From the NCBI GenBank assembly GCA_951406725.2, contig OX597829.1, forward strand, positions 10,850,001 through 10,914,000: DNA of 64,000 nt, written 5' to 3'. Origin of the DNA: Octopus vulgaris. Lineage: Eukaryota. Shown in pieces: positions 15,191-63,544 of this stretch (position 1 is the stretch's first letter; each line of letters opens with the position of its first letter). A program made the position numbers and the translations under genes. The notes beneath the pieces are model-generated. The model saw nothing but the letters and a program-made list of their open reading frames with translations. It was not told the origin of the DNA and made no database searches.

Positions 15191-16612
15191 TGTTCGTCCT
15201 CCACCAACCCCAGGAGAAGTGCTGAGAACAAAACAGCGGACTCTATGCTACTTTCGTTGACCTTACAAAAGCATTTGACACAGTGAGCAGGACAGGACTA
15301 TGACTCAACCTGGAACGACTTGGCTGTCCCACCAAGTTTCTACAGATGGTGATCCAGCTGCACGAGAATCAGTGTGGTCAGATCAGACTCAATGCTGGCC
15401 TGTCGGAGCCCTTCCCCATTTCCAACGGCGTGAAGCAGGGTTGCGTTCTGGCACCGACTCTCTTCAGCATCTTCTTCAGCATGATGATCAAGCATGCAAC
15501 TGAAGATATGGAGAATGAGGATGGGGTGTATGTTAGGTATCGTTTGGATGGCAGTCTCTTCAATCTACGGCGCCTCCAAGCACACACCAAGACCCAGGAG
15601 AGGCTGATCCGAGACCTTCTCTTCGCAGATGACGTTGTCCTTGTCGCCCACACAGAGCGAGCTCTGCAGCGCATCACATCCTGCTTTGCAGATGCCTCGC
15701 GGCTCTTTGGCCTGGAGGTCAGCCTCAAGAAGACGGAGGTGCTTCACCAACTTACATCCCAAGAAGAATACCGCCCACCCCACATCACTATCTGCGGTAC
15801 CGAACTCAACTCAACACAGCAGTTTACATACTTGGGCTGCATCATCTCATCCGATGCAAGGATCGACAAGGAAATTAACAATAGACTTTCTAAGGCAAAT
15901 AACTCCTTTGGCAGATTGTACAAACGTGTTTGGCACAATGGTGGCCTGAAGAACAAAGCAAAGATCAGTGTCTACAGGGCCGTGGTTCTCACCACTCTTT
16001 TCTATGGCTCAGAATCTTGGATCACTTACCACAGTCATATCCGTCTCCCCGAGCGCTTCCACCAGCGATGTCTCCGCACCATCCTCAACATTCACTGGAG
16101 TGACTTCGTCACAAATATTGAAGTCTCGGAGCGGGCCGAGATCCCCAGCATTGAAGCCACGCTACTGAAGTACCACCTCCGATGGGCAGGGCATGTCTCC
16201 AGAATGGAGAACCATCGCCTTCCTAAGATTGCCCTGTTTGGCGAACTCTTCACCGGCCACCGAGTAAGAGGGGCTCCGAAGAAGCACTACAAAGACTGCC
16301 TCAAGAAGTCTCTAACAGCATGTCATATTAACTACCAATGCCGATCAGACCTGGCTGCGGACCGTGATGTCTGGCGCCACACGATCTTCAACGCAGTCAG
16401 CAAGTTTGAGGAACAAAGAAGAGACGCACTTAAAGACAAGAGACGCAGGAGGAAGGCGCGAGCCGCCTCTGACACCACACCAGATGTTACCTTCGTCTGT
16501 GGACACTGCTCACAGACCTGCCTTTCCCATATCGGACTTGTCAGTCATGAGCGTGCATGCACGCGACGTGGACAGTCTTCCTGATCTTCGTTCGCGAAGC
16601 CAAGTCATAATA

Positions 16613-21899: not shown

Positions 21900-22369
<470 letters not shown>

Positions 22370-29188: not shown

Positions 29189-29625
29189 TTAATTGTTACC
29201 GCCATATTAATATGGCAATCTTATAGATATAAGACTAAAAGCTGTCGCTGATTAGCTCCATGAGGCCATCGCCTTAAGATAGCTATATGACACACAAACT
29301 GTGTCCATTAGAACCTTCGAACAAGGGAGGTCAGCCGCTTCACAATGCTAGTCAGACAGCTACAGACGCGTTTCAGGGTATTTGCCCCTTGTCAATGTAG
29401 CGTCTGTAGCTGTCTGACTAGCAGTGTGAAGCGGCTGACCTCCCTTGTTCGAAGGTTCTAATGGACACAGTTTGTGTGTCATATAGCTATCATGGAGCTA
29501 ATCAGCGACAGCTTTTAGTCTTATATCTATAAGATTGCCATATTAATATGGCGATAACAATTAATTTCCAGTAACGCTGTCGTAATCTCATTTAGAGAGA
29601 CTTAGTAATTTTAATATTTCTATTA
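29189..29625. mobile_element. Foldback copy of the 362 bp HHR repeat family
   Basis: Minus arm 29189-29402 (HHR at about 29359-29401), plus arm 29400-29625; homologous to 35081-35861; ends at (TA)n. Confidence 0.85.
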
Positions 29626-35035: not shown

Positions 35036-35297
35036 TGTCAGACCAGTAGGTGTCGCTTCCGACTATCTCTGTTCGAATAATAATAAGCGGACAGCTTTAT
35101 TCTTATTTCTATAAGAATGCCATATTAGTATGGCGATAACTATTAATTTCCAGGAACGCTGCCGTGTTCTCTTTTAGAGAGACTTAGTAATTTTAATATT
35201 TCTATTATTGAAAACAAGTGGATGTATTCCACCGAAACTAGGTAAATAAAACCTTCGAACAGAGATAGTCGGAAGCGACACCTACTGGTCTGACTAC

Positions 35298-35339
35298 GCT
35301 ACATTGACAAGGGGCAATACCCCGAAACGCGTCTGTAGC
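35298..35339 (+). ncRNA. Minimal type I hammerhead ribozyme, U3-A8 variant
   Basis: gctaca TTGACAA gggg caata cccc GAAA cgcg TC tgtagc; predicted cleavage after 35333. Confidence 0.85.
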
Positions 35340-35659
35340 TGTCGATCAAGTAGTGTGGAGCGACTGACCTCCCTTGTTCGAAGGTTATATGGATACAGTT
35401 TGTGTATCAAATAGCTAACTTAAGGCGATGGCCTCATGGAGCTAATAAGCGGACAGCTTTATTCTTATTTTTATAAGAATGCCATATTAGTATGGCGATA
35501 ACTATTAATTTACAGGAACGCTGCCGTGTTCTCTTTTAGAGAGACTTAGTAATTTTAATATTTCTATTATTGAAAACAAGTGGATGTATTCCACCGAAAC
35601 TAGGTAAATAAAACCTTCGAACAGAGATAGTCGGAAGCGTCACCTACTGGTCTGACTAC

Positions 35660-35701
35660 GCTACATTGACAAGGGGCAATACCCCGAAACGCGTCTGTAG
35701 C
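35660..35701 (+). ncRNA. Second identical U3-A8 hammerhead ribozyme
   Basis: Identical to 35298-35339, 362 bp downstream; predicted cleavage after 35695. Confidence 0.85.
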
Positions 35702-35862
35702 TGTCGATCAAGTAGTGTGGAGCGACTGACCTCCCTTGTTCGAAGGTTATATGGATACAGTTTGTGTATCAAATAGCTAACTTAAGGCGATGGCCTCATG
35801 GAGCTAATAAGCGGACAGCTTTATTCTTATTTTTATAAGAATGCCATATTAGTATGGCGATA

Positions 35863-35984
<122 letters not shown>

Positions 35985-46269: not shown

Positions 46270-48745
46270 ATTTCACTAGACTCAGGCACCTGAATCAGCT
46301 GAGCCTCTCAAAATCCAAGGCCAAGTGACCTTTTTCTATTTTATTTCTCCGATAAACATGGTCATTTCTAGTGGGGTGCATGAATATTCCTGGCCTGGGG
46401 TCAGCTTGGAAGCAAGATCACTTGCTAAACGACCTCAGGTCGCTCGATGTGGGTGCAATTAGCGAGACAAGCATTTCTAATGCGCAAGTACTAGCACCCA
46501 TTTTCTATGACTATGAGAAATTCTTATCCTATAGTCTGTCGGAAGCAGGCGGCGGGATAGCAGGGCTATTCCGAAAATCCTTAGATGTCGAAGTAAAGGC
46601 AATTTTGGACCCGGGCAGCAGGTTGGTAGTCCTAGACGGGAATGGTAGCGAAGGTGCCGCCGTTAGACTGGTGGTCGTCTATGCAGTGACAGGAGCTGGA
46701 AGGCCAGAAATTTTCAGGCGTCTAGAAACATTCCTGGGAATGTCTCGCAGTTTAGTAGTAGCAGGGGACTGGAATGGGATTTTGGATGCACTGAAGAAGG
46801 ACTGTGTGGGGCTAGTACACAGAAGAAGGGGATGCAAAAGCCTCGAAAACCTACTCAGAGACTTCCAATTGTCTGATAGGTATCGACTGGATTTCCCTGA
46901 TGTGCTAGTGTGAACATGAAGCAACCACAATGAGTCATCTAGAATGTATCTAGGTAGAATATTTGTTAGGTCAGAGGATAGGGACAGTGTAGATTGTTTA
47001 CAATTTAAATTGATCTGCTACACAGACCACAAGTTTTCGATCTGCAGAGTCGAGTTAGAAAGGGCCCGTAGACAGGAACCCAGTTACTGGAAGTAAAATG
47101 TTCCCTTTCTGGTACACAAACTACAGGGACTGGACTAGTGAACTAGTTAAGGGCAGTGTCGGCATACGTGGACGACGTCATCGTCATGGTGTCGTACGCC
47201 TCCGAAGTGGAGACGGTCGGCAACATCCTAAAAGAATATGAGTCAGTGGAAAGGGCGAAAATCAACACCGACAAATCGGTAGGTTTGTGGTTGGACTTCT
47301 GAAGAGGCAATACGATGCTATCGGGCGGCATCACTGGACGCTGGACCGACGGACCAGTTAAACTGTTCGGGGTTTGGTTTGGTCCCGACCTTCAGGCTGA
47401 TAAGTACTGAGACGAGGTGGCGAACAGGGTGGCCAGTCTTACTCAGAAATGGGATGAGAGAGAAAGCTGTCCCTGAAAAGTTGGGCTGAGGTGGCGAATA
47501 CTTACATTGCCCAGCTCCGTTATCATTTATTGACTGACCGTTGTGCCTTGTCCCGCTTACTGCTTGGCCAAGTTAGAGCTTCTCTTATTTAAATTCTTGT
47601 GGAAGGGACTCGTTCCAATGGTCAGGCGATCAGTCTGTTGCCAATATCTTCTGAGTGGCATGCCGTGGCTCCTAATGCGCAGACACGCTCTAAGGTTGCC
47701 CACCTGCAACGATTTCTGGACGGTGAGCGTGTGTGAGGCTTATCTCCGTTTGTGAGGCTCGCCCTTCTGCAGCTCGTCTCCTTGAAGTATCTAGAGTCCT
47801 ATGTGAAGAAAAGACCGAGACTGGGCGTCTAGCACCTAGAATATCGTCAGGCTCTCACAACCCTCTACCAGTCGGGTAATGGAATCGGTGGATGTTCCGC
47901 TTTAGACATTTATAGAGGATTAGTGACGGGGAAGTACGAAGAAGTTCTCGGGGCGACTCTGGACGACGACGAGAACGAACTGATAAATCTGTTCCGGAGG
48001 ACTTCCAGTCGGGAACTATTATGGATAATTTCCAGATGCCCTTGGCCTGGCAGTGCTAATGGGGAGCGCTACTGGTTCGAGATAACCTCTACATGTTCGG
48101 AGGTGCTGTCAGACGGACTTGTCCGAGGTGGCGCAGAGTGACGAAACCATTCTTCACGCACTCGTTCAGTGTCCGGGCATTGTTGTCTTCTGGGATTATG
48201 TTGAACAGCTACTGCCACATGTGGGACGGATCCGTCTGTCGGTCTGTAGTAATGATTTGGAGCCACCCTCCTTCAATCGGGTAGGCAAGGCAGTTTTCCT
48301 TTACTTGGTAGCTGTGGCGAAAGAGGTTGCTTGGTGGACAAGGCTGAAAAGCTTGAGGACAGACACATTCCTCTTTGGTAGAGCTGTCATTTACTTTTTC
48401 AAGTTTCCCTTGAAAAAGAAATTGAGAATGGAGAGAGAAGTGCTGTCCTGGAGTGAGTTTATTGAAAGGTGGGTAAAAGTTTCGAAAATAGCAAGAGTGG
48501 ATGGTACCTCTCTAAGTGTAGACCTGAGAGCCGGAGAGAAGGAATTGGAGAGGGCACAGGGAAATCTCGGACAGTGAGGTTCCTCAATTATCCCTAGAAG
48601 ACTTCCTTGTGTATACTTTCTTTCCTTCTTCCTTTCCTTCTTTATTCCTTTCTTTCTTATCATTTCATTATATGTAAACGCCCCACACTTTATTTCTGTT
48701 TTTGCATTGTCCCCATCATACTTCGCTCTTGAGGCAAATAAATTA
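46270..48745 (+). mobile_element. Degraded, internally deleted L1/Tx1-like LINE
   Basis: APE motifs (MNIPGL, AISET, AGDWNGILD, TDH), then a jump to SAYVDDV, LFGVWFGP and the zf-RVT region (DETILHALVQC); AATAAA then (CAT)n. Confidence 0.85.
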
Positions 48746-49339
48746 AATCATCATCATCATCATCATTATTATTATTGTAGTAGCAGTAGCAGTAGTAGTA
48801 GTGGTGGTGGTGGTAGTAGTAGTAATAGTAGTAGTAGTTGTTGTAGTAGTAGTAGTAGTAGTAGTAGCAGCAGTGGTAGTAGTAGTAGTGGTAGTGGTAG
48901 TGGTAGCAGTGGCAGGAGCAGCAGTAGTAGTAGGAGTAGTAGTAGTAGTTTTGATTCAAGCAAACATACCACACGATGAAATGCATGTTAATGTACATAT
49001 GTGAACATGACTCCCTGACCTGTAAACTGCTGAGAAGTTCGTTTCGAAACCATGTGTTTCCTGGTAGATCTTACTCTGCAGTAACTTGGACACATGTATT
49101 TTTTTTACCACAGCCTTTTCAATGGAATCTGGTAGAAACTGAAGACCGTTGTATACTTATAAATAATCACGCATACGAGATTGCGCACAAACATTCATAT
49201 AGTCACATGCATACACATGCACACACACACACATATATATATATGTGTGTATATATATATAAACGTCTACATATACACACACGCACACACATTCAAACGT
49301 ACATGCATTCATATATATATATCTATATATATATATATA

Positions 49340-50923: not shown

Positions 50924-51016
<93 letters not shown>

Positions 51017-51334
51017 TTCAATTAGATTTATTATTATTATTACTAATATTGTTGTTATACATACATACAAGCATATGTAATAATAATAATGGGTGGATGT
51101 AAACACATGAACAAAATTAGAACAAAAGCAACAACAACAAAAACAAAATTCAAATTACAAGAATGTATATATAACCAGAAGATACAAATATTACAGGCAT
51201 CCCCCTCACACACACACTAAATAAACATAGACGCACATAGAGATATAAGCATGCGCAAATGAAGACATACAATAGAAATACAAAATGGCTGACGGTTAGT
51301 AAGGAGAGACACAAGTAAGTGAGAAGAAAACAAA

Positions 51335-51379
51335 GGACCACTGATGCGGTCACAGGAGTGTGACGAAAGAACTTTGGCC
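51335..51379 (+). ncRNA. Hammerhead-like motif in the Neptune terminal repeat (A9>C variant); duplicate at 55518-55562
   Basis: ggacca CTGATGC g gtcaca-ggag-tgtgac GAAA gaac TT tggcc. Confidence 0.6.
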
Positions 51380-51475
51380 GAAATAAGATTAAGATTAATG
51401 TAAAAAATAAATATCACTGAAGCAAAATAACACCAAATATATAGTGCGTGTGTTTTTATTGGCTAAACTGGCAAT

Positions 51476-52588
51476 ATGACCATTCCGAAATATAACAATA
51501 TCTGTTTCAACACACGACTTCACATAAAAAATCTTGCACAACAAATATTTAAACGTACTAACGTGAGCCACAGCCAGGCTTGCAAGATGCTGAAGAACAC
51601 TATATTTTGTTGCCTAAAGAAAACTGTGACAACGCAACAGCTTCGTTTTATAAAACAATGTGTCTCGTCCAGGATATGTATCAACAAGGTCACAGCCAAC
51701 GTTAAACGGCTTGACCTCACTAACGGACAAGCGGAAAGACTAAAAAGGACGCTAATGGTAAATATTAGAAATAGAATATACAGAGAGCTGAGCGAACAAG
51801 AGAAGCGTAAACGTATATTTTTAAAAGAAATTAAAAGTATCACCACACGAAAGGAGAAAACCTTACTAATGGATATAATATATGAAGAAAACAGACATGT
51901 AATACACCAATGCAATATCCATTGGTGTATTAAGAGGAAGTTATCGTGGTTGAAACAGAAACGTCAATATGAGCTCGCAAAGGAAGAAAAGCAGAAGTAT
52001 CCAGATACAATAAATGGAATTATTATGGAAGATGTGCTACTACCAGAAGAGTTTAATAAAGACAATGAAGCGAACATCTATGGGGGAGTAACAACGGACC
52101 CGGATGAAATATCGATACTTCAACTACCACCAAAGTATGCAGTGTATAGTAAGGTGAATACCATCAAATGCCTGTCCGAGATTGAAAAGTCGTTCACAAA
52201 AATACGTTGGAATTTAAATAGATACTATGACAACAACACTTGCGACAACAACAACAACGCGAAAAACACTAACCGCAGCAACAACAACACAAACAATAAT
52301 GACCGCAACGATAACAACCGTAGCAACAAAAGCAACACGAACCCTAACAGCGGCAACAACAACAACACGAACCCTAACAGCGGCAACAACAACAACAATA
52401 GAAAAAATATATGCATAGACACAAACAATAGATACAAAAACAAAAACACAAACAGAGAGAGAAAAATCGTATACAACAGCAACAACAACAACAATTATAG
52501 GGAGAACCGACAAACAAACACACACACAGATAGCCATAGTCACAAAGACACGAATAAAAGTTGTCATAGGGGTCACGATGGAGAATAA
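51476..52588 (+). CDS. N-terminal part of the Penelope-like ORF
   Basis: ATG lies inside the terminal repeat; basic N-terminus with EISILQLPPKYAV, then an Asn-rich tract; frame changes near 52580. Confidence 0.75.
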   Translation: MTIPKYNNICFNTRLHIKNLAQQIFKRTNVSHSQACKMLKNTIFCCLKKTVTTQQLRFIKQCVSSRICINKVTANVKRLDLTNGQAERLKRTLMVNIRNRIYRELSEQEKRKRIFLKEIKSITTRKEKTLLMDIIYEENRHVIHQCNIHWCIKRKLSWLKQKRQYELAKEEKQKYPDTINGIIMEDVLLPEEFNKDNEANIYGGVTTDPDEISILQLPPKYAVYSKVNTIKCLSEIEKSFTKIRWNLNRYYDNNTCDNNNNAKNTNRSNNNTNNNDRNDNNRSNKSNTNPNSGNNNNTNPNSGNNNNNRKNICIDTNNRYKNKNTNRERKIVYNSNNNNNYRENRQTNTHTDSHSHKDTNKSCHRGHDGE

Positions 52589-55050
52589 AGTTGAATGCAA
52601 CAGGATCCTTGGACAGGGAGTCAGCGGACTTGAAACAGATAACAATACTCATAGGAACAAAAATAACGACCGCAACAGGGGGAATGACAGGGACCAACAG
52701 ACAGACATAAAACCCAACACTAATATAAACAACACATATACCAGAAACAGGAACAATGAATATATCACTAGCGATGATAGTAATAATGGCAATAGTAGAA
52801 ATAAAGGTAATAACAATAATAGTGGTAGTAGTAGTGGTGATGGTAACAGTAGAAGTAGTAATGAGGATAGTAGTGATAGTTGTGGTGGTAATAGGAATAC
52901 TAGTAGTAGTAGTAGTGGTAATGGTGATAATAATAATAGGAAGGCTGATGTTGGAAACAGTAACGATAATGAAGATAACCCTAGAGAGACCATTGACATG
53001 TATACCCATCCCTTTGACACTCAATTCTTCAACGTATGCGACAAAACTTACTGCATGAACCGAATATATCCAACAACATTACCCTTCAACAAAAGAGTAT
53101 ACATCCCTAGACGTACTAATGACCACATGGAAGCACAGTTCACTATAGCTAGGACCAAACTTAGACAGATTTTAGGATTATACATTAAGAGACAGAGACA
53201 GAATAAGACAGATGCCCAACAACTCGGGATTAAACCTGCATGTGGCCTACAGAAGCTCATTCAGCGCACGAGGAACGGAGAGGTGATATGCCTTCCCACG
53301 GATAAGTCCGGCAGGATGTCAATAGACAGCTTACCGAACTACATCCAGGCAATGCAACCTCATATCGCCAATACAAATGTAACAACTGTACAGGCGCATG
53401 AGGAGAGAGAAAAGGTCCTCAATGCCCACATGATGATGTGGACAATTGTTCTAGGACCTCAGAAACGTACTGCAAGGAATTTCCAAGCCTGGAACAATGA
53501 TATCCCGGCACTGTATGGACTTCGCAAGGACCATAAAGGTTTTACTGACCCTATATCAGGACCACCAACAAGACCAGTCTGTGGAGCGAATATCGCTAGC
53601 AATTACAGAATCTCCTACTTCCTCTCAATGATCATACGCCCTATAATCAGGATGTCACCTGATGTGTGTGACAGCACAGAAGATCTCCTAAGCAGGATCA
53701 GTGACTGTAACAAAACTTGTGACTTGACAGGATGTATAGTAGGTAGCATGGATGTGGTATCCCTATACCTATCGATTGACGTAGATTTTGCAGTGGAGAA
53801 GTGCGTGGAGATGATCAACGAGAGCCAGGTGGAGTTCTGTAATGTCGACACAGAAGAACTGGGCCTCCTACTTAGACTGACATATAATAGTGAATACTTA
53901 GATAAACATAATCTTAGTAGTTTCTGCCCCAGTAGATGTTTAAGAGGTAGACCGCCTACAATTACTTCTATGGCTAGGAAGACACATATAGAAAGATGGC
54001 GCGGATGGACCAGAGCCATACGGAGCCCCGCAAATGTCCATCAGGTAAAGAAAATGATCGCACATGCACTAGGAGCTAGTATAAGAGTTACCCTAAAAGG
54101 CCACACATTTAAATTTAATAATAAAATATATGCCCAGGACGAGGGGGCAGCCATAGGTGTTAGTATCGCTGGTGATGTGGCCAACCTCTTCATGGTATGG
54201 TGGGACAGAAGGCTTAAAGAATGCCTACTGCAGAAATCCATACTCGTAAACATGTACTTTCGCTATGTTGATGATATCAATATAGTAGTAAAGGCACCCC
54301 CACAAGAGAGTAATGTTGATATAGTAATAGAAACTAATACTATGGAGAGCATCCAGCAAATAGCTAACTCCATCCATCAGAGTATTAAGGTCACAATAGA
54401 CTACCCCACTAAACACCCCAACCATAGACTACCAGTACTAGACACTGAACTCTGGCTAGAAATTGTGAAAAATAAAACCCAAATCCTTCATTCATACTAT
54501 GCAAAACCTATGGCCTCAAAATACCTGATCCACCGGAACTCAGCCATTGCGGGCAATGCCAAATTCAATATTTTGATGGCAGACCTCGTCAGAATAATGA
54601 GAAATGTGTCACGCATGTGCGAGCCTACAGAATTAAAGAGACACATACAGTATTTCATTCACCGCATGCAGTTCTCAGGTTACAGCCATAAAGAAAGGGT
54701 CAGAGTATACAAAGGAGCCATGAAGAAATTTGATAATATATTATGTAATGATAGGAATGGGATTTGCCCACTCTATAGGAACAAGTCATGGAACACTATA
54801 GAAAGGACAAAAAAGAAAATAGGGAAGGCCAACTCTTGGTATGATAGCCATAAATACCAGAGTGTCATGTTCGTTGACACCACCCCTGGAGGTGAACTGG
54901 CGTACCGCTTTAGAAGGACCCTAGATAAACTTAAACTAAGAATTAAGGTTGTTGAAAAGCCAAGCAACCCTATCAGATCTATAATTGGTAGAAGCTATCC
55001 ATTTAGTAGAACTCTCTGTACGGATAACTTTTGCACTGTATGTAGATTTA
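52578..55050 (+). CDS. Penelope-like reverse transcriptase with Cys linker; endonuclease missing
   Basis: [31 protein letters not shown]...[19 protein letters not shown] and CTDNFCTVC, then the ORF runs into (TA)n. Confidence 0.92.
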
Positions 55051-55080
55051 GATATATGTGTATATATGTGTGTATATATG

Positions 55081-55179
<99 letters not shown>

Positions 55180-55689
55180 ATATTTTTTTTTTTTTTTTTT
55201 TTTTAATTAGATTTATTATTATTATTACTAATATTGTTGTTATACATACATACAAGCATATGTAATGATAATAATGGGTGGATGTAAACACATGAACAAA
55301 ATTAGAACAAAAGCAACAACAACAAAAACAAAATACAAATTACAAGAATGTATATAACCAGAAGATACAAATATTACAGGCATCCCCCTCACACACACAC
55401 TAAATAAACATAGACGCACATAGAGATATAAGCATGCGCAAATGAAGACATACAATAGAAATACAAAATGGCTGACGGTTAGTAAGGAGAGACACAAGTA
55501 AGTGAGAAGAAAACAAAGGACCACTGATGCGGTCACAGGAGTGTGACGAAAGAACTTTGGCCGAAATAAGATTAAGATTAATGTAAAACATAAATATCAC
55601 TGAAGCAAAATAACACCAAATATATAGTGCGTGTGTTTTTATTGGCTAAACTGGCAATATGACCATTCCGAAATATAACAATATATACA

Positions 55690-55720
<31 letters not shown>

Positions 55721-56515: not shown

Positions 56516-57279
56516 ATATATATATCGCCATGATTGATCGTTAGTCACTAAACCTTTTATATTTCCTCTCTCTGCTTATTTCAGTGTTCCTTTCTGTTGA
56601 AGTGCGTCGGGTCGAAAAATAAAGGACTTTCTCACGAATACATTTGTTTGTTGTTTATACACCCGTCTTCGTCTTTTGTTTTGTCTTGTTTTTGTAAATT
56701 CTAAATATATATATATAAATGAAGGCGGCTTATAAACAATATAAAACCACAAAGGAAAACTTCAGTTGTCTCTAATTGTAACTGACGGTGCAGGGTAGCA
56801 CCTATATTGCTAGAAATAAGAGCCAAAACTTCTTATGGTTGCAAAGAAGTACATGTCAATGCACTGACAGGAGACGCCGTCGTCCCACAGGAAGCGAGAT
56901 CATCAAACTAATCTAGTTTCACTTTGAATTAATAGCTAATCGGTGATAACTACTCCATCGCTGGATAGTTTAGCTAAATCCCAACTGTCAGTATGTAGTG
57001 TTTACCATATGAATTTATACCTGATTCAGCAAAATGGTAATGTGAAAATCATAAAATAACGAAGGTGTCTATAAACAATATACAATCCAAATAGAATAAT
57101 TTAATTGGCAGTACGTGTATCCCATGTATTCCTTTGTTACAACTGTTTCAACAACAAGTTTTAAATAAATCATTTAATAATTTGGAAAACATGAAACATG
57201 AATATGAGCAATGATTATGTAAAATTGATCATGTATTATTGATTACATAATATAAAATCGTTGGCTCCAAAATAAATCG

Positions 57280-57847
57280 AAATGGTGACTACACTCCAGA
57301 AATAAGACGGCGGATAGCACTAGGCAGAGAGGCAATGGTCAGCATGAGCAGGGTCTGGAAGAGTAGAGACATCAGACTCGCTATCAAATGCAGATTAGTG
57401 AATGCAATTGTCTTCCCAATAGCAACATATGGCTGCGAGACCTGGACACTAAAGAAAGCTGACCAGAAGATAATTAATGCATTCGAGCTTTGGTGTTGGA
57501 GAAGACTTTTGCGGATTCCATGGACAGCGAGGTTCACCAATGGAGAAGTTCTTAAGCAGATAAGGCCGAAAATGTCGCTAGAAGCTAGGATCACCAAGCA
57601 AAGATTGGCATATTTCGGTCATATTATGCGGAGAAAATCCCTGGAGAATGACATCATGCTCGGAATGGTCAGTGGCAAGAGAGGAAGAGGCCGACCAAGA
57701 ACCCGCTGGATTGACACAATCAAGAGTGATACCGGAATGGACATAGCCAATCTGAAAGAAGCGGCCCAGGATAGAACTGACTGGAGGACACTGATCCAAC
57801 CAGTGACTGAGAGTCGACTTCGACTAAGCGGCTGATGATGATGATGA
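57280..57847 (+). mobile_element. 3' fragment of an RTE (BovB-like) LINE
   Basis: EIRRRI...VFPIATYGCETWT...AFELWCWRRLLRIPWTAR...YFGHIMR...RGRPRTRW; (TGA)n tail. Confidence 0.9.
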
Positions 57848-58970: not shown

Positions 58971-59022
<52 letters not shown>

Positions 59023-59088
59023 TGTATGTATGTGCGTATAGATATATGTATTATATACGCATGCATCCCTCCATATACGTGCGTGAAA

Positions 59089-59131
<43 letters not shown>

Positions 59132-59141
59132 AGAGAGAGAG

Positions 59142-60243
59142 AGAGAGGTTGTTTGCTGTCAACTTAACGTGACAGTAAGGGAATTTCACACCGCTGTTTA
59201 GCCCTAGGATGCATCGACGCTTCCTGTCGGCTTTGACACATTTCCTGTGTCCTTATATATTTACGAAGGGGAGACAAATACCCCCAACAGCTAGGCCTGC
59301 ATCTAGAGACATGCATGTTTCGGGGTCTTTGCCCATCATCGGTCTAGAGTAGCAGAGGCCTGCTAGCTGAAGATGAAATCTTTATTAAAATCATGCGATT
59401 TTACATAAGACAAACAATTACAAAGAATGTTATGAGAGTTCGAATGATACTTGAAATTTATAAAAAATTAATTATAATGTAACATGATCAAAAACTTGGC
59501 TTACTTTTGCCTTTATAACGAGAACTGTAGTGCGTTTTTTTTTAAAAAAAAACATTAGAAATTATAACATATGTAAAATGAAAAGGAATGGGAAGTGCCG
59601 GTTTCGAATTTTGGACCCAGCAGCCTATAAGGCCCAGCAACTAAATTTTCTTTTCTTCGATGATTAAGCTGGGTTACTTACATCCACCTTTCTCATCACA
59701 TCCTTCCAACGTTTCATATACTCTTTCTGTGGCAGGCTCCTCTTCTCCGATCCCATCTTGCTCTTCCGATGATATCTGAAGTATTTTAACAAACCGGGGC
59801 CAGAGACAAAGGACCCTGTCACTAAACCTTCCATTCTGGTTCTCCACACACACTCTTTCAGAACTGCTACCCTACAGCAAAAAAAAAGCCTTACCTTCCT
59901 TTGAGAGTCCACTTGGCGGTATCATCTTTATCATAGATCCAGCCGACAGCTGTACTCGTCCCAGATGCGACAACACGTGTTCAACGTAACTTATCAAGCT
60001 TGACAGCTCCCGACATTGTACAAAAGCGTGTTGAACGATTTCATCGGCCAACCCACATCTTGGACACGTCGGTGGCACTGACATTCCGTGCCTGGATAAC
60101 ATATCGCGAACGGGTAATGCACTCCTATAGCACTGCCAGGTCAGGGATTTTTGGTAATTGTCCAAATACCCCGGCATGAAAGTCTTCTTAAACAGGTTGG
60201 AGAGTTGATTCTCATCGAACCACAGAGCCCTTCCTAGGACGTC
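59142..60243 (-). repeat. 1.1 kb inverted copy of 62254-63369
   Basis: Near-identical reverse complement, including the zf-RVT coding part and an HHR at 59302-59348. Confidence 0.95.
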
Positions 60244-63135
60244 TGGCTGTACATCTGGAGTGTTGGCAGCGAGAACGGTCTTGTACCGTCACCTCTACGC
60301 CAAGCATGAGGGGTGTAGAGTCAGAGGTAAGTTACGTGCAGGGAAACGAGAAGGTATTAACTTTGCCTGATGGGCCCGTCGTGAGGAGAGTCAGAAGGGC
60401 AAAAAGTCCTGTATTAAGTCTTTAACTAACGAGCAGGGTCGCAAGATCTATGGAAAGGAGGAGATGCAGAAGGTTCTTCACCAGCATTTCGCCCGGTTGT
60501 TCGGGGATGGTTGTCCGCTCGAGCGAGGGGAGACCTTAAAGGATTTCCAAGCCGGTGGGCCGCGGCTCTCGACACATGTGGCGGAATGCTGTGAAGGATC
60601 GATCTCTCCTGCGGATGTAAGAGAGGTTATGGCCGGTTGCGCCGTGGAAAAGTCGCCGGGGTTAGATGGTCTGCCCTATGAGTTCTATTTTTGTATGCCG
60701 GACTTGTTCGGAGATATACTGGCGGGAGTCTATGCGAACTGGCAACAGAATGGGAGGATTCCCAGTTCTGTGAGCCGGGGAGTTGTGACGCTGATCCAGA
60801 CTCGAACAAGGGGGATAGTATTAGTAATTATAGGCCCATAACTCTACCTAATGTAGAGTTTAAGATTTTGGCCAAGGTGTTAGTAAAAAGGTTGACGGCT
60901 GTCGTGGAGAAACTTGTCGGGAAGGCACAGACATGTGCAATTCCAGGCAGGTCGATCCAGGATAATCTTCACCTTCTCCGCTACACTATAGACAGGGTCG
61001 GGAAATTAGCCGGCAAAAAGCTATTGGTCCATTTAGACCAAAGTAAAGCGTTCGATAGGGTAGACCATCGGTACTTGGTGGCGGTCCTCGGGGCGGCTGG
61101 GCTGGGCTCTGGCTTTTGCGAGTGGATCTCACCTATGTACAGCAGCATCAAGTCCACAGTCCAGATAAACGGTTACCTAACGGAGGCGTTTTCGATCAAG
61201 CGTTCAGTTCGTCAAGGGTGTTCCCTGTCCCCGCTCCAGTATGTTTTGACTCTTGAGCCATTGCTGCGGAAGTTGGAGAAGTTGGGAAGCAACCCTAATG
61301 AAATCGGATGCGGTAAGTCTGTTTCTGCCTATGCGGATGACGTCACCCTCATCGTGTCCAACGAAGCACAGCTACCTCGGGTAGAAGGTGCTCGCCGAAG
61401 ATACGAAGCGGTGGCAGGGACAAAAGTTAACAAGGACAAGTCCACCGGTTTGCGCCTCGGCACCTGGAGGAACAAGCCGATATTTTCCAGTGCAGTTGGA
61501 CACTGGACAGATGGTCCTGTTAAATTGCTCGGAGTTTGGTTTGGTCCAGACTCCCAGACGGAGAAGAATTGGAGCGAGGTAGCGAACAAGGTATAAGCTA
61601 TAGTACGGAAGTGGTCCGGAAGGCATCTTTCCTTGAAAGGGAGGGCGGAGGTGGTACAAGTGTTTATAGCCTCTGTCATAGGAGGGGCTCTGTGGTTCGA
61701 TGAGAATCAACTCTCCAACCTGTTTAAGAAGACTTTCATGCCGGGGTATTTGGACAATTACCAAAAATCCCTGACCTGGCAGTGCTATAGGAGTGCATTA
61801 CCCGTTCGCGATATGTTATCCAGGCACGGAATGTCAGTGCCACCTACCGTCCTCCCTTGCCCCGATTCGTGGTTAAGCAAGTTAGAACGACTCCTTTTCC
61901 GCTTTTTGTGGAGGGGAGGAAAGCCACTTGTGAGACGCTCCGTGTGTTGCCAGGAACCGCTAAAGGGTGGGCTGGGGATGCCTTGGCTAATGATGTGCAG
62001 GCATGCGTTGAGTCTGAGACATCTCTGGTGTCACCTGGAGGGTGATAAGGTTTGAAGTCCGCTGGCAGAGGAAATCTTCCCGCGAGCGGCCTCTATGGAG
62101 AGTTTTAAACCCGGTTTCATTAAAAGACGTAATCTGACTTTATGGCAGAATGAGTGCCGATAGGCACTCTGGCTAATCCACAAGGTGGGCAAGGCCGGCG
62201 GCGGGAATACCACCTCGGTGTTCTATAGAGGGCTGGTAGAGGCAAAAAATGACGACGTCCTAGGAGGGGCTCTGTGGTTCGATGAGAATCAACTCTCCAA
62301 CCTGTTTAAGAAGACTTTCATGCCGGGGTATTTGGACAATTACCAAAAATCCCTGACCTGGCAGTGCTATAGGAGTGCATTAACCGTTCGCGATATGTTA
62401 TCCAGGCACGGAATGTCAGTGCCACCGACGTGTCCAAGATGTGGGTTGGCCGATGAAATCGTTCAACACGCTTTTGTACAATGTCGGGAGCTGTCAAGCT
62501 TGATAAGTTACGTTGAACACGTGTTGTCGCATCTGGGACGAGTACAGCTGTCGGCTGGATCTATGATAAAGATGATACCGCCAAGTGGACTCTCAAAGGA
62601 AGGTAAGGCTTGTTTTTACTGTAGGGTAGCAGTTCTGAAAGAGTGTGTGTGGAGAACCAGAATGGAAGGTTTAGTGACAGGGTCCTTTGTCTCTGGCCCC
62701 GGTTTGTTAAAATACTTCAGATATCATCGGAAGAGCAAGATGGGATCGGAGAAGAGGAGCCTGCCACAGAAAGAGTATATGAAACGTTGGAAGGATGTGA
62801 TGAGAAAGGTGGATGTAAGTAACCCAGCTTAATCATCGAAGAAAAGAAAATTTAGTTGCTGGGCCTTATAGGCTGCTGGGTCCAAAATTCGAAACCGGCA
62901 CTTCCCATTCCTTTTCATTTTACATATGTTATAATTTCTAATGTTTTTTTTTAAAAAAAAACGCACTACAGTTCTCGTTATAAAGGCAAAGGTAAGCCAA
63001 GTTTTTGATCATGTTACATTATAATTAATTTTTTATAAATTTCAAGTATCATTCGAACTCTCATAACATTCTTTGTAATTGTTTGTCTTGTGATGTCCAA
63101 TTCTATGTAAAATCGCATGATTTTAATAAAGATTT
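60244..63135 (+). mobile_element. 5'-truncated L1/Tx1-like LINE ORF2 (frameshifted)
   Basis: KSPGLDGLP, YRPITL, LDQSKAFDRV, RQGCSLSP, AYADDV, GGLG and CPRCG...HAFVQC; stop at 62832; AATAAA at 63125. Confidence 0.9.
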
Positions 63136-63162
63136 CATCTTCAGCTAGCAGGCCTCTGCTAC

Positions 63163-63209
63163 TCTAGACCGATGATGGGCAAAGACCCCGAAACATGCAT
63201 GTCTCTAGA
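63163..63209 (+). ncRNA. Type I hammerhead ribozyme (U4>C variant); inverted duplicate at 59302-59348
   Basis: tctaga CCGATGA t ggg-caaagac-ccc GAAA catgcatg TC tctaga; palindromic stem III; stem I can extend through aggc...ctgc/gcaggcct. Confidence 0.75.
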
Positions 63210-63439
63210 TGCAGGCCTAGCTGTTGGGGGTATTTGTCTCCCCTTCGTAAATATATAAGGACACAGGAAATGTGTCAAAGCCGACAGGAAGCGTCGATGC
63301 TTCCTAGGGCTAAACAGCGGTGTGAAATTCCCTTACTGTCACGTTAAGTTGACAGTATACAACCTCTCTTTCGCTCCACCAACGTACATATCTCTCTGAG
63401 ATATTTAGAAATTTAATATTTCTGATATATATTTATATA

Positions 63440-63475
<36 letters not shown>

Positions 63476-63493
63476 TGCGTTTGTACGTGTGAG

Positions 63494-63544
<51 letters not shown>

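Follow-up and report, generated by a model that had tools for sequence, protein, structure and literature searches.

An L1/Tx1-type LINE at the start of a hammerhead retrozyme in Octopus vulgaris, with probable head-to-head re-copying by Penelope-type machinery

A 64,000-nt stretch of the Octopus vulgaris genome (contig OX597829.1, positions 10850001-10914000; hereafter the window, in whose own positions the locus is described) contains a composite of three parts: a 5'-truncated long interspersed nuclear element (LINE) of the L1/Tx1 type, a hammerhead retrozyme unit at its 3' end, and an inverted 1.1-kb copy of the junction between the two at its 5' end. We compared this locus with its relatives across the 2.8-Gb genome. 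The reading that we favor, with fair confidence, is that the LINE inserted at the ATC of a retrozyme, likely a transcription start of the small nuclear RNA (snRNA) type, and that the read-through RNA was probably reverse-transcribed twice by Penelope-type machinery, the products being joined head-to-head in (TA)n. The window copy is a dead passenger.

Insertion of the LINE family at retrozyme start positions

In the DNA that follows the 40 best LINE 3' ends (sample 1), 28 ends adjoined position +1 of a retrozyme (family C, 12, including both window arms; family B, 12; family A, 3; family D, 1), three adjoined +1 of a U2 gene as identified by Rfam, one +1 of a U7-like gene, three the 5' leader of another LINE, and five other DNA. 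A junction-based sample, of whose 40 best ends 39 were examined (sample 2), gave 23 retrozymes, one U7-like gene, one LINE and 14 other sequences, these 14 coming mostly from copies that are short and older. Full-length copies are preceded by the upstream half of the target itself. Target-site duplications (TSDs) of 14-17 nt bounded four of four promoter-bearing family-C insertions tested, including the 5'-truncated L069; truncated copies L302, L311 and L314 had TSDs of 10-16 nt, with ATCAGT at -59, -58 and -57. Because the family-C cases carry TSDs and one of them is 5'-truncated, these insertions are independent. Viewed from the target, 6 of 41 sampled family-C promoters were directly followed by the 5' end of this or a related LINE. 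Kojima's definition of target preference requires that more than 20% of flanks hold a repeat, with a TSD; here 28/40 and 23/39 of the 3' ends lie at a retrozyme +1, with TSDs of 14-17 nt. The LINE family almost certainly has a target preference for the first ATC of retrozymes.

The hammerhead belongs to a separate retrozyme of ~362 nt and not to the LINE. A search with positions 63140-63370 returned 2840 candidates, of which 40 were scored and 30 loci examined; a LINE stood upstream of the unit in only four of these (the two window arms, L009 and L018), and the remaining loci had tandem monomers, flank or the upstream half of the unit itself. The family-C monomer is 362 nt long, occurs in tandem and is without an open reading frame (ORF), in keeping with the definition of retrozymes lacking long terminal repeats, or non-LTR retrozymes (tandem monomers of 170-400 nt, a type I hammerhead, no ORF). 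Folded as a circle it reaches -125 kcal/mol (z -8.9 against 60 shuffles). The window motif pairs TCTAGA with TCTAGA in stem I, carries the core CCGATGA at 63169, stem II (GGG/CCC), GAAA, and a palindromic stem III followed by GTC. As is commonest in family C, its core is U4C and its helix II closes with a U-C mismatch; the canonical CTGATGA with U-A closure appeared in sister copies (7 of 85 motif matches, some loci being counted more than once). Helices I-III are preserved in families A, B, C and E despite their different sequences, helix III being palindromic throughout. Rfam reported no hammerhead in the window (among the best 150 of 195 matches) or in 14 loci, where it found only U2, and our assignment rests on a descriptor scan and on cross-family pairing. 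The window core is predicted to be a weak variant: U4C is reported to reduce activity in vitro and to suffice in a viroid (PMC3088659). Another retrozyme family is present in the window as a dimer at 35081-35867 on the plus strand (362-nt period, 99% identity), with a further minus-strand copy near 29400. Its core is TTGACAA, a U3-A8 covariation described in PMC4209133, its helix II is GGGG/CCCC, it ends on (TA)n, and no ATCAGT was seen in the monomer.

A preliminary description of the locus, made from its letters alone, had supposed that the LINE entered a hammerhead-bearing element, possibly its preferred target. This is borne out by units that exist without the LINE in thousands of solo copies, by the TSDs of independent insertions, and by the junction, which is not peculiar to this locus and is found again in 17 of the 40 best matches to it, the two window arms being among the 17. 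Its alternative, that the LINE lineage gained a 3' ribozyme of its own, draws on the family-C unit after 12 of the 40 best 3' ends, far from always, and on three LINEs in one subclade that have the canonical-core variant after them. However, other retrozyme families, U2, the U7-like gene, LINEs and unrelated DNA also follow this LINE 3' end; within the clade, other members have different targets at their ends; and the unit's upstream half and a TSD precede independent insertions. As a general rule an intrinsic ribozyme is refuted by the TSD-bearing, truncated L069. We consider it scarcely credible that the lineage owns a ribozyme, or that the inversion is an assembly artefact: the two arms differ by 8 substitutions, by indels and at their outer ends, and so are not an assembler's copy.

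What the targets offer at this position resembles an snRNA promoter, a fixed spacing that the preliminary description had overlooked. Nearly all U1, U2 and U5 loci examined carry an ATCAGT-type motif at -57 to -61 (U1, 12 of 12; LINE-free U2, 27 of 28; U5, 11 of 12), and the LINE insertion site in retrozymes lies 57-61 nt downstream of ATCAGT; this U1/U2/U5-like distance makes an snRNA-type start likely. We built a matrix of the proximal sequence element (PSE) from the U1/U2/U5 loci and sought its best site among 190 positions in the flanks of full-length LINEs (38 rows, from which two duplicates and two lacking a legible +1 were removed). Of 27 non-LINE flanks, 25 had their best site between -63 and -54, three of the 25 being U2 promoters used in the matrix itself (22/24 excluding U2), versus 0 of 7 LINE flanks. 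In copies inserted in U2, the U2-derived TSD is followed by the initial 14 nt of retrozyme family A, which suggests that their donor RNA began at the ATC of family A. For newt satellite 2, an animal retrozyme, an snRNA promoter has been cited (PMC2220036). The insertion site is thus probably the PSE-driven, snRNA-type transcription start of the retrozyme. A seemingly selective PSE spacing in occupied monomers, apparent in a small sample, was gone in an unbiased one and was dropped.

Several targets merit separate description. The U2 arrays at L077, L193 and L194 (C3:20.81-20.83 Mb) and L079 (C23) contain young LINE insertions of 99-100% identity at +1, some of them in tandem, with a stacked leader of 14 nt from U2 and then 14 nt from family A. 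Rfam named none of the minor targets. One of these, at positions 1501-1580 of L200, L201, L202 and L205 (C6:68.18-68.20 Mb), is a clustered small RNA gene of ~75 nt with ATCATC at -58/-59 and a 3' hairpin; a LINE end lies at +1 in two of its eight matches. From its resemblance to U7 we take it to be U7-like, without an Rfam match. L304, L306 and L307 share one small LINE 3' fragment and an inverted piece beside another repeat, apparently co-amplified as a unit.

A number of observations weigh against a choice of site by promoter. Targeting is not strict, as 14 of the 39 sample-2 ends adjoin DNA that is neither retrozyme nor snRNA gene. The repeat occupied by L071 lacks a PSE and imitates family C over its first 9 nt, and two insertions lie in another PSE-less repeat. 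No LINE was found at +1 of 12 U1 or 12 U5 loci. Retrozyme families are homologous, so their PSE matches are not independent and the count of 25 of 27 overstates independence; PSE spacing is 55-60 in occupied monomers and mostly 53-58 in empty ones. LINE subclades also follow the family of their target: the tree has 13 label changes, where shuffling gives 24.6 on average and none of 200 shuffles came as low. The L071 site, the U1 and U5 loci and the subclade pattern favor an account in which sequence selects the site: the endonuclease would cut Y|ATC, the borrowed leader and read-through tail of the LINE RNA would pair with similar DNA, and the PSE would only decide which copies are transcribed and survive. 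U1 and U5, with none of 24 loci hit, have no ATC at +1, most off-target sites start with ATC or GTC, L301 resembles L071, and a distant relative at 46270-48745 ends in (ATC)n. Set against this, the targets have only ATC and the PSE in common, positions +4 to +14 and -10 to -1 differing among U2, A, B, C, D and the U7-like gene; near-identical LINE copies (99%) lie in A, B and U2; and short truncated copies, which are promoter-independent, also lie at -57 to -59. We regard selection by sequence in place of the promoter as somewhat unlikely, and a sequence or RNA-pairing component in targeting as likely.

Head-to-head structure and end signatures of the window copy

Self-comparison of the window aligned 59135-60243 with 62254-63376 in inverted orientation at 98% identity. 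The arms proper (59142-60243 and 62254-63369) differ by 8 substitutions per 1101 aligned bases, one 15-nt indel and one 1-nt indel, and the outer ends of both stand on microsatellite, (TA)n or (GA)n(TA)n. The inverted 3' copy beside (TA)n/(GA)n that had been described at the 5' end is therefore real, as are the ORF2 end at 62832, the AATAAA at 63125-63130 without poly(A) and the hammerhead after it, a type I fold on which Rfam was silent. The right end, placed at 63369, had to be moved to 63425: a tail of ~55 nt is present on the right arm only. Upstream of the LINE there is neither a promoter half nor a TSD. A 173-nt internal duplication, missed earlier (61675-61847, a copy of 62257-62429), is not in the other copies compared; it has 3 differences from either arm, and the arms differ from each other at 2 positions over the same stretch.

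The ends of the arms fall into the two classes seen in solo family-C copies, 17 of which ended at +228-240 and 25 at about +289, with five more continuing into the next promoter. The window arms end at +233 (left) and +289 (right), both on microsatellites, and in 6 of the 7 head-to-head loci found among 37 family-C loci an arm of one class is paired with an arm of the other. With the window arms and one duplicated pair merged, the junction sample holds 15 independent LINE-family-C loci: five with promoter and TSD, two after another LINE end with leader, seven promoterless and one short fragment. A TSD was absent from five of five other promoterless chimeras tested, and four short off-target LINE insertions have TSDs of 12-17 nt. 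In the tree the promoterless copies are scattered among TSD-bearing ones, with weak support inside the clade. Insertions of Penelope-like elements (PLEs) are described as having an inverted 5'-truncated copy, a one-sided tail and microsatellite targets (PMC8557442); the window locus shows all three, and no TSD. These signatures suggest that the window copy was probably re-copied by PLE-type machinery from a LINE-retrozyme transcript. Re-mobilization of the chimera by such machinery had been proposed in the preliminary description; the end and tail signatures agree with it and fall short of proof.

Other results count against this origin. We found no autonomous PLE with a family-C pseudo-LTR: the PLE protein of the window gave no PLE ORF joined to family C in the loci examined, the genome not having been searched for partners. 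The assembly contains no donor at close to 99% identity; other copies reach 96-97% at most, so that the template may have been the locus's own RNA or a lost allele. Contigs from four DNA sequencing runs were too short to span the inversion, and contigs from four presumed RNA runs covered the monomer; neither set was given weight. Among the 15 independent loci the LINE part is duplicated head-to-head only in the window. L074 consists of a promoterless LINE, the U7-like gene and 436 nt of that gene's flank, which implies that promoterless chimeras can arise without a retrozyme. The missing donor also suits a local origin of the left arm, in which an ordinary insertion would have been followed by fold-back or template-switch repair of the DNA, or by copying of the transcript of the locus, with deletion of the promoter and the LINE 5' half. 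So do the 2-nt overlap at the junction, the private branch of 0.023 that the arms have in common before they split in the tree, and the breakpoint and age (2-3 differences in 173 nt) that the duplication shares with the inversion. Yet retrozymes have only two canonical ends, and the left arm stops at one of them (+233) without copying the tail or flank of the right arm; the long-arm/short-arm pattern recurs in the 6 of 7 head-to-head retrozyme loci; and a hop of the locus's own RNA would still require a Penelope-type reverse transcriptase (RT). Local formation thus seems unlikely to us. Movement of the chimera by the LINE's own proteins, through 3' transduction and L1-type twin-priming inversion, is very improbable. 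L074 resembles a 3' transduction of the U7-like gene and its flank, and L179 and L313 show inversions within the LINE, but the window has no TSD although the LINE otherwise makes them, and both of its ends are of retrozyme type. Twin priming inverts upstream sequence and leaves the 3' end unduplicated, so it would not duplicate the LINE 3' end as here.

For copying by Penelope-type machinery the following course can be proposed. The family inserts repeatedly at the ATC position of several retrozyme families, U2 and the U7-like gene, with 14-17-nt duplications. At what would be a PSE-driven start, the LINE would borrow the promoter and keep the target's first ~14 nt as a leader. Without a poly(A) stop its transcript would continue into the retrozyme, whose 3' ends in the read-through RNA would be what the Penelope-type RT recognizes. 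Two cDNAs, one of 1.1 kb from +233 and one of 3.2 kb from +289, would then meet by microhomology, and one template switch would yield the 173-nt duplication.

Two other inverted structures were not accepted as comparable cases. A 12.5-kb head-to-head locus at C4:124124750-124137250 (L195, L080), considered as a second re-mobilized chimera, has two 6.2-kb arms of 99.1% identity, each with promoter, full-length LINE and retrozyme B; young copies at different loci are just as similar, which makes two separate insertions an equally good explanation, and the locus was set aside. The inverted 98.9% retrozyme copy at L063 was not counted, as it follows the end of a different LINE.

Features of the LINE and of its neighborhood

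The feature coordinates are collected in Table 1. The window LINE starts at about nt 2746 of the 5546-nt full-length copy found in L077; its ORF2 remnant, ending at 62832, matches the profiles RVT_1 (E 4e-33) and zf-RVT (E 8e-9), and relative to an intact copy it is inactivated by one frameshift and three in-frame stops. ORF1 of the L077 copy carries zf-CCHC (E 6e-4, just under the cut-off) and ORF2 carries Exo_endo_phos, RVT_1 and zf-RVT. This is the constitution of the L1/Tx1 group: a CCHC ORF1, and an ORF2 with apurinic/apyrimidinic (AP) endonuclease, RT and a C-terminal zinc finger. The closest solved structure is L1 ORF2p (E 5e-60; R2, E 1e-25). One named match, to 'Transposon TX1 149 kDa protein' (E 6.5e-72, 32% identity), is a lead only.

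Table 1. Features of the composite locus, in window positions.
Feature	Position	Strand	Remarks
(TA)n / (GA)n microsatellite, left flank	58974-59141		
Left arm, retrozyme family C unit	59142-59374	-	+1 (59374) to +233, tail-less
Left-arm hammerhead motif	59302-59348	-	U4C variant as in right arm
Left arm, inverted copy of the final ~870 nt of the LINE (62254-63136)	59375-60243	-	Sister of right arm in tree, 100/100
5'-truncated, disabled L1/Tx1-type LINE	60244-63136	+	2-nt overlap joins left arm
173-nt templated insertion, displacing ~15 nt	61675-61847	+	Source begins 3 nt from inversion breakpoint
ORF2 C-terminal segment with zf-RVT	62164-62832	+	Stop 62830-62832
AATAAA near LINE 3' end	63125-63130	+	Poly(A) absent
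ATC, LINE/target junction and retrozyme +1	63137-63139	+	Putative snRNA-type transcription start
Retrozyme family C unit	63137-63425	+	+1 to +289; ~362-nt monomer without promoter part
Type I hammerhead motif, core CCGATGA (U4C)	63163-63209	+	Palindromic helix III; predicted cut after 63203; descriptor scan
Tail, right arm only, ~55 nt	63370-63425	+	+234 to +289
(TA)n / (TATG)n microsatellite, right flank	63425-63542		

Elsewhere in the window, the element at 46270-48745, taken earlier for an older relative, indeed has no hammerhead; it is not an older copy and belongs to a different family (27-50% amino-acid identity). This distant L1/Tx1-type family (46270-48760) ends in AATAAA-TTAA and then (ATC)n, with (ATC)n upstream too, and may be an (ATC)n-targeting relative that shares the junction ATC. 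An apparently full-length Penelope-like element occupies about 51000-55700 (ORF 52419-55265) between two direct repeats of ~480 nt, each with a hammerhead-like core; its flanks are (TA)n, and its repeats are unrelated to family C. Other LINE remnants with RTE-like C-termini lie at 15304-16584 and 57251-57835, and 22031-22343 forms a near-perfect 156-nt fold-back around (TAG)n/(TAC)n, with 1 nt separating its arms.

Relation to known elements and implications

Target-specific Tx1 LINEs, some of which target other transposons, are already known (PMC4494074). Keno (U2), Tx1L (Tx1D) and Tx1-Mar (Mariner-N4) resemble the octopus family in an ORF2 with AP endonuclease, RT and zinc finger, a CCHC ORF1 and the absence of poly(A), as well as in insertion into another repeat or U2, tandem insertions and target-derived 5' additions (PMC4494074, PMC4640811). 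Keno and Utopia insert inside U2, leaving U2 from nt 39 downstream (PMC4640811), whereas the octopus LINE inserts at U2 +1, duplicates the first 14 U2 nt so that the whole U2 remains downstream, and is found at the corresponding position of unrelated units that bear a PSE, most of them retrozymes. It is accordingly no Keno, which is defined by U2-specific insertion inside U2 before nt 39; here U2 is a minor target (3/40). Our literature search, partly of titles and abstract openings, found no LINE that targets retrozymes or snRNA starts; subscription papers, such as Kojima and Fujiwara 2004, and Repbase lay outside it and may describe such elements.

The target unit resembles non-LTR animal retrozymes, including newt satellite 2, in its tandem ~362-nt monomer, type I hammerhead, short palindromic helix III, strong self-pairing and lack of an ORF (PMC7229834; bioRxiv 10.64898/2026.07.22.740005), and probably in the snRNA-type promoter reported for the newt element (cited in PMC2220036). 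It differs in that the main family-C core is U4C and in that LINEs occupy family-C monomers at about 15% of sampled promoters. Animal retrozymes have been argued to derive from PLEs (bioRxiv 10.64898/2026.07.22.740005), whose minimal hammerheads work as dimers (PMC4209133). With PLE insertions the window locus has in common the inverted 5'-truncated copy at the 5' end, the one-sided tail, the microsatellite target, no visible TSD and the minimal terminal-repeat hammerhead (PMC8557442, PMC4209133); its cargo is a LINE rather than a PLE ORF, and its tail is ~55 nt long against 30-40 (PMC8557442).

These observations bear on how such elements find their sites and how they move. Near-identical copies switch among U2 and several retrozymes, which have only the ATC and the promoter motif in common, so start position and borrowed RNA ends can be set against each other directly as the selector of the site. 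Known target-specific LINEs are thought to select their sites through the sequence specificity of their endonuclease. Of the transcription of animal retrozymes little is known except in newts, and the insertions point to a candidate promoter and start site for it.

To the picture of target-specific LINEs the locus itself adds a probable head-to-head re-copying, in which Penelope-type machinery would have moved the element a second time, and it suggests that LINE sequence joined to a retrozyme can be mobilized in this way. The ends at +233 and +289 give a concrete model of PLE inverted repeats and one-sided tails, in which two priming events would occur on the two sides of one break. Tentatively, and with some doubt, the whole can be read as parasitism in three tiers. 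Retrozymes would be snRNA-promoter genes; an L1/Tx1 LINE group would home to snRNA-type starts (U2, the U7-like gene and at least five retrozyme families), steal the promoter and record its former hosts as stacked 5' leaders; and Penelope machinery would carry even dead LINE passengers. If true, this would give LINE sequence a second, LINE-independent route of transposition.

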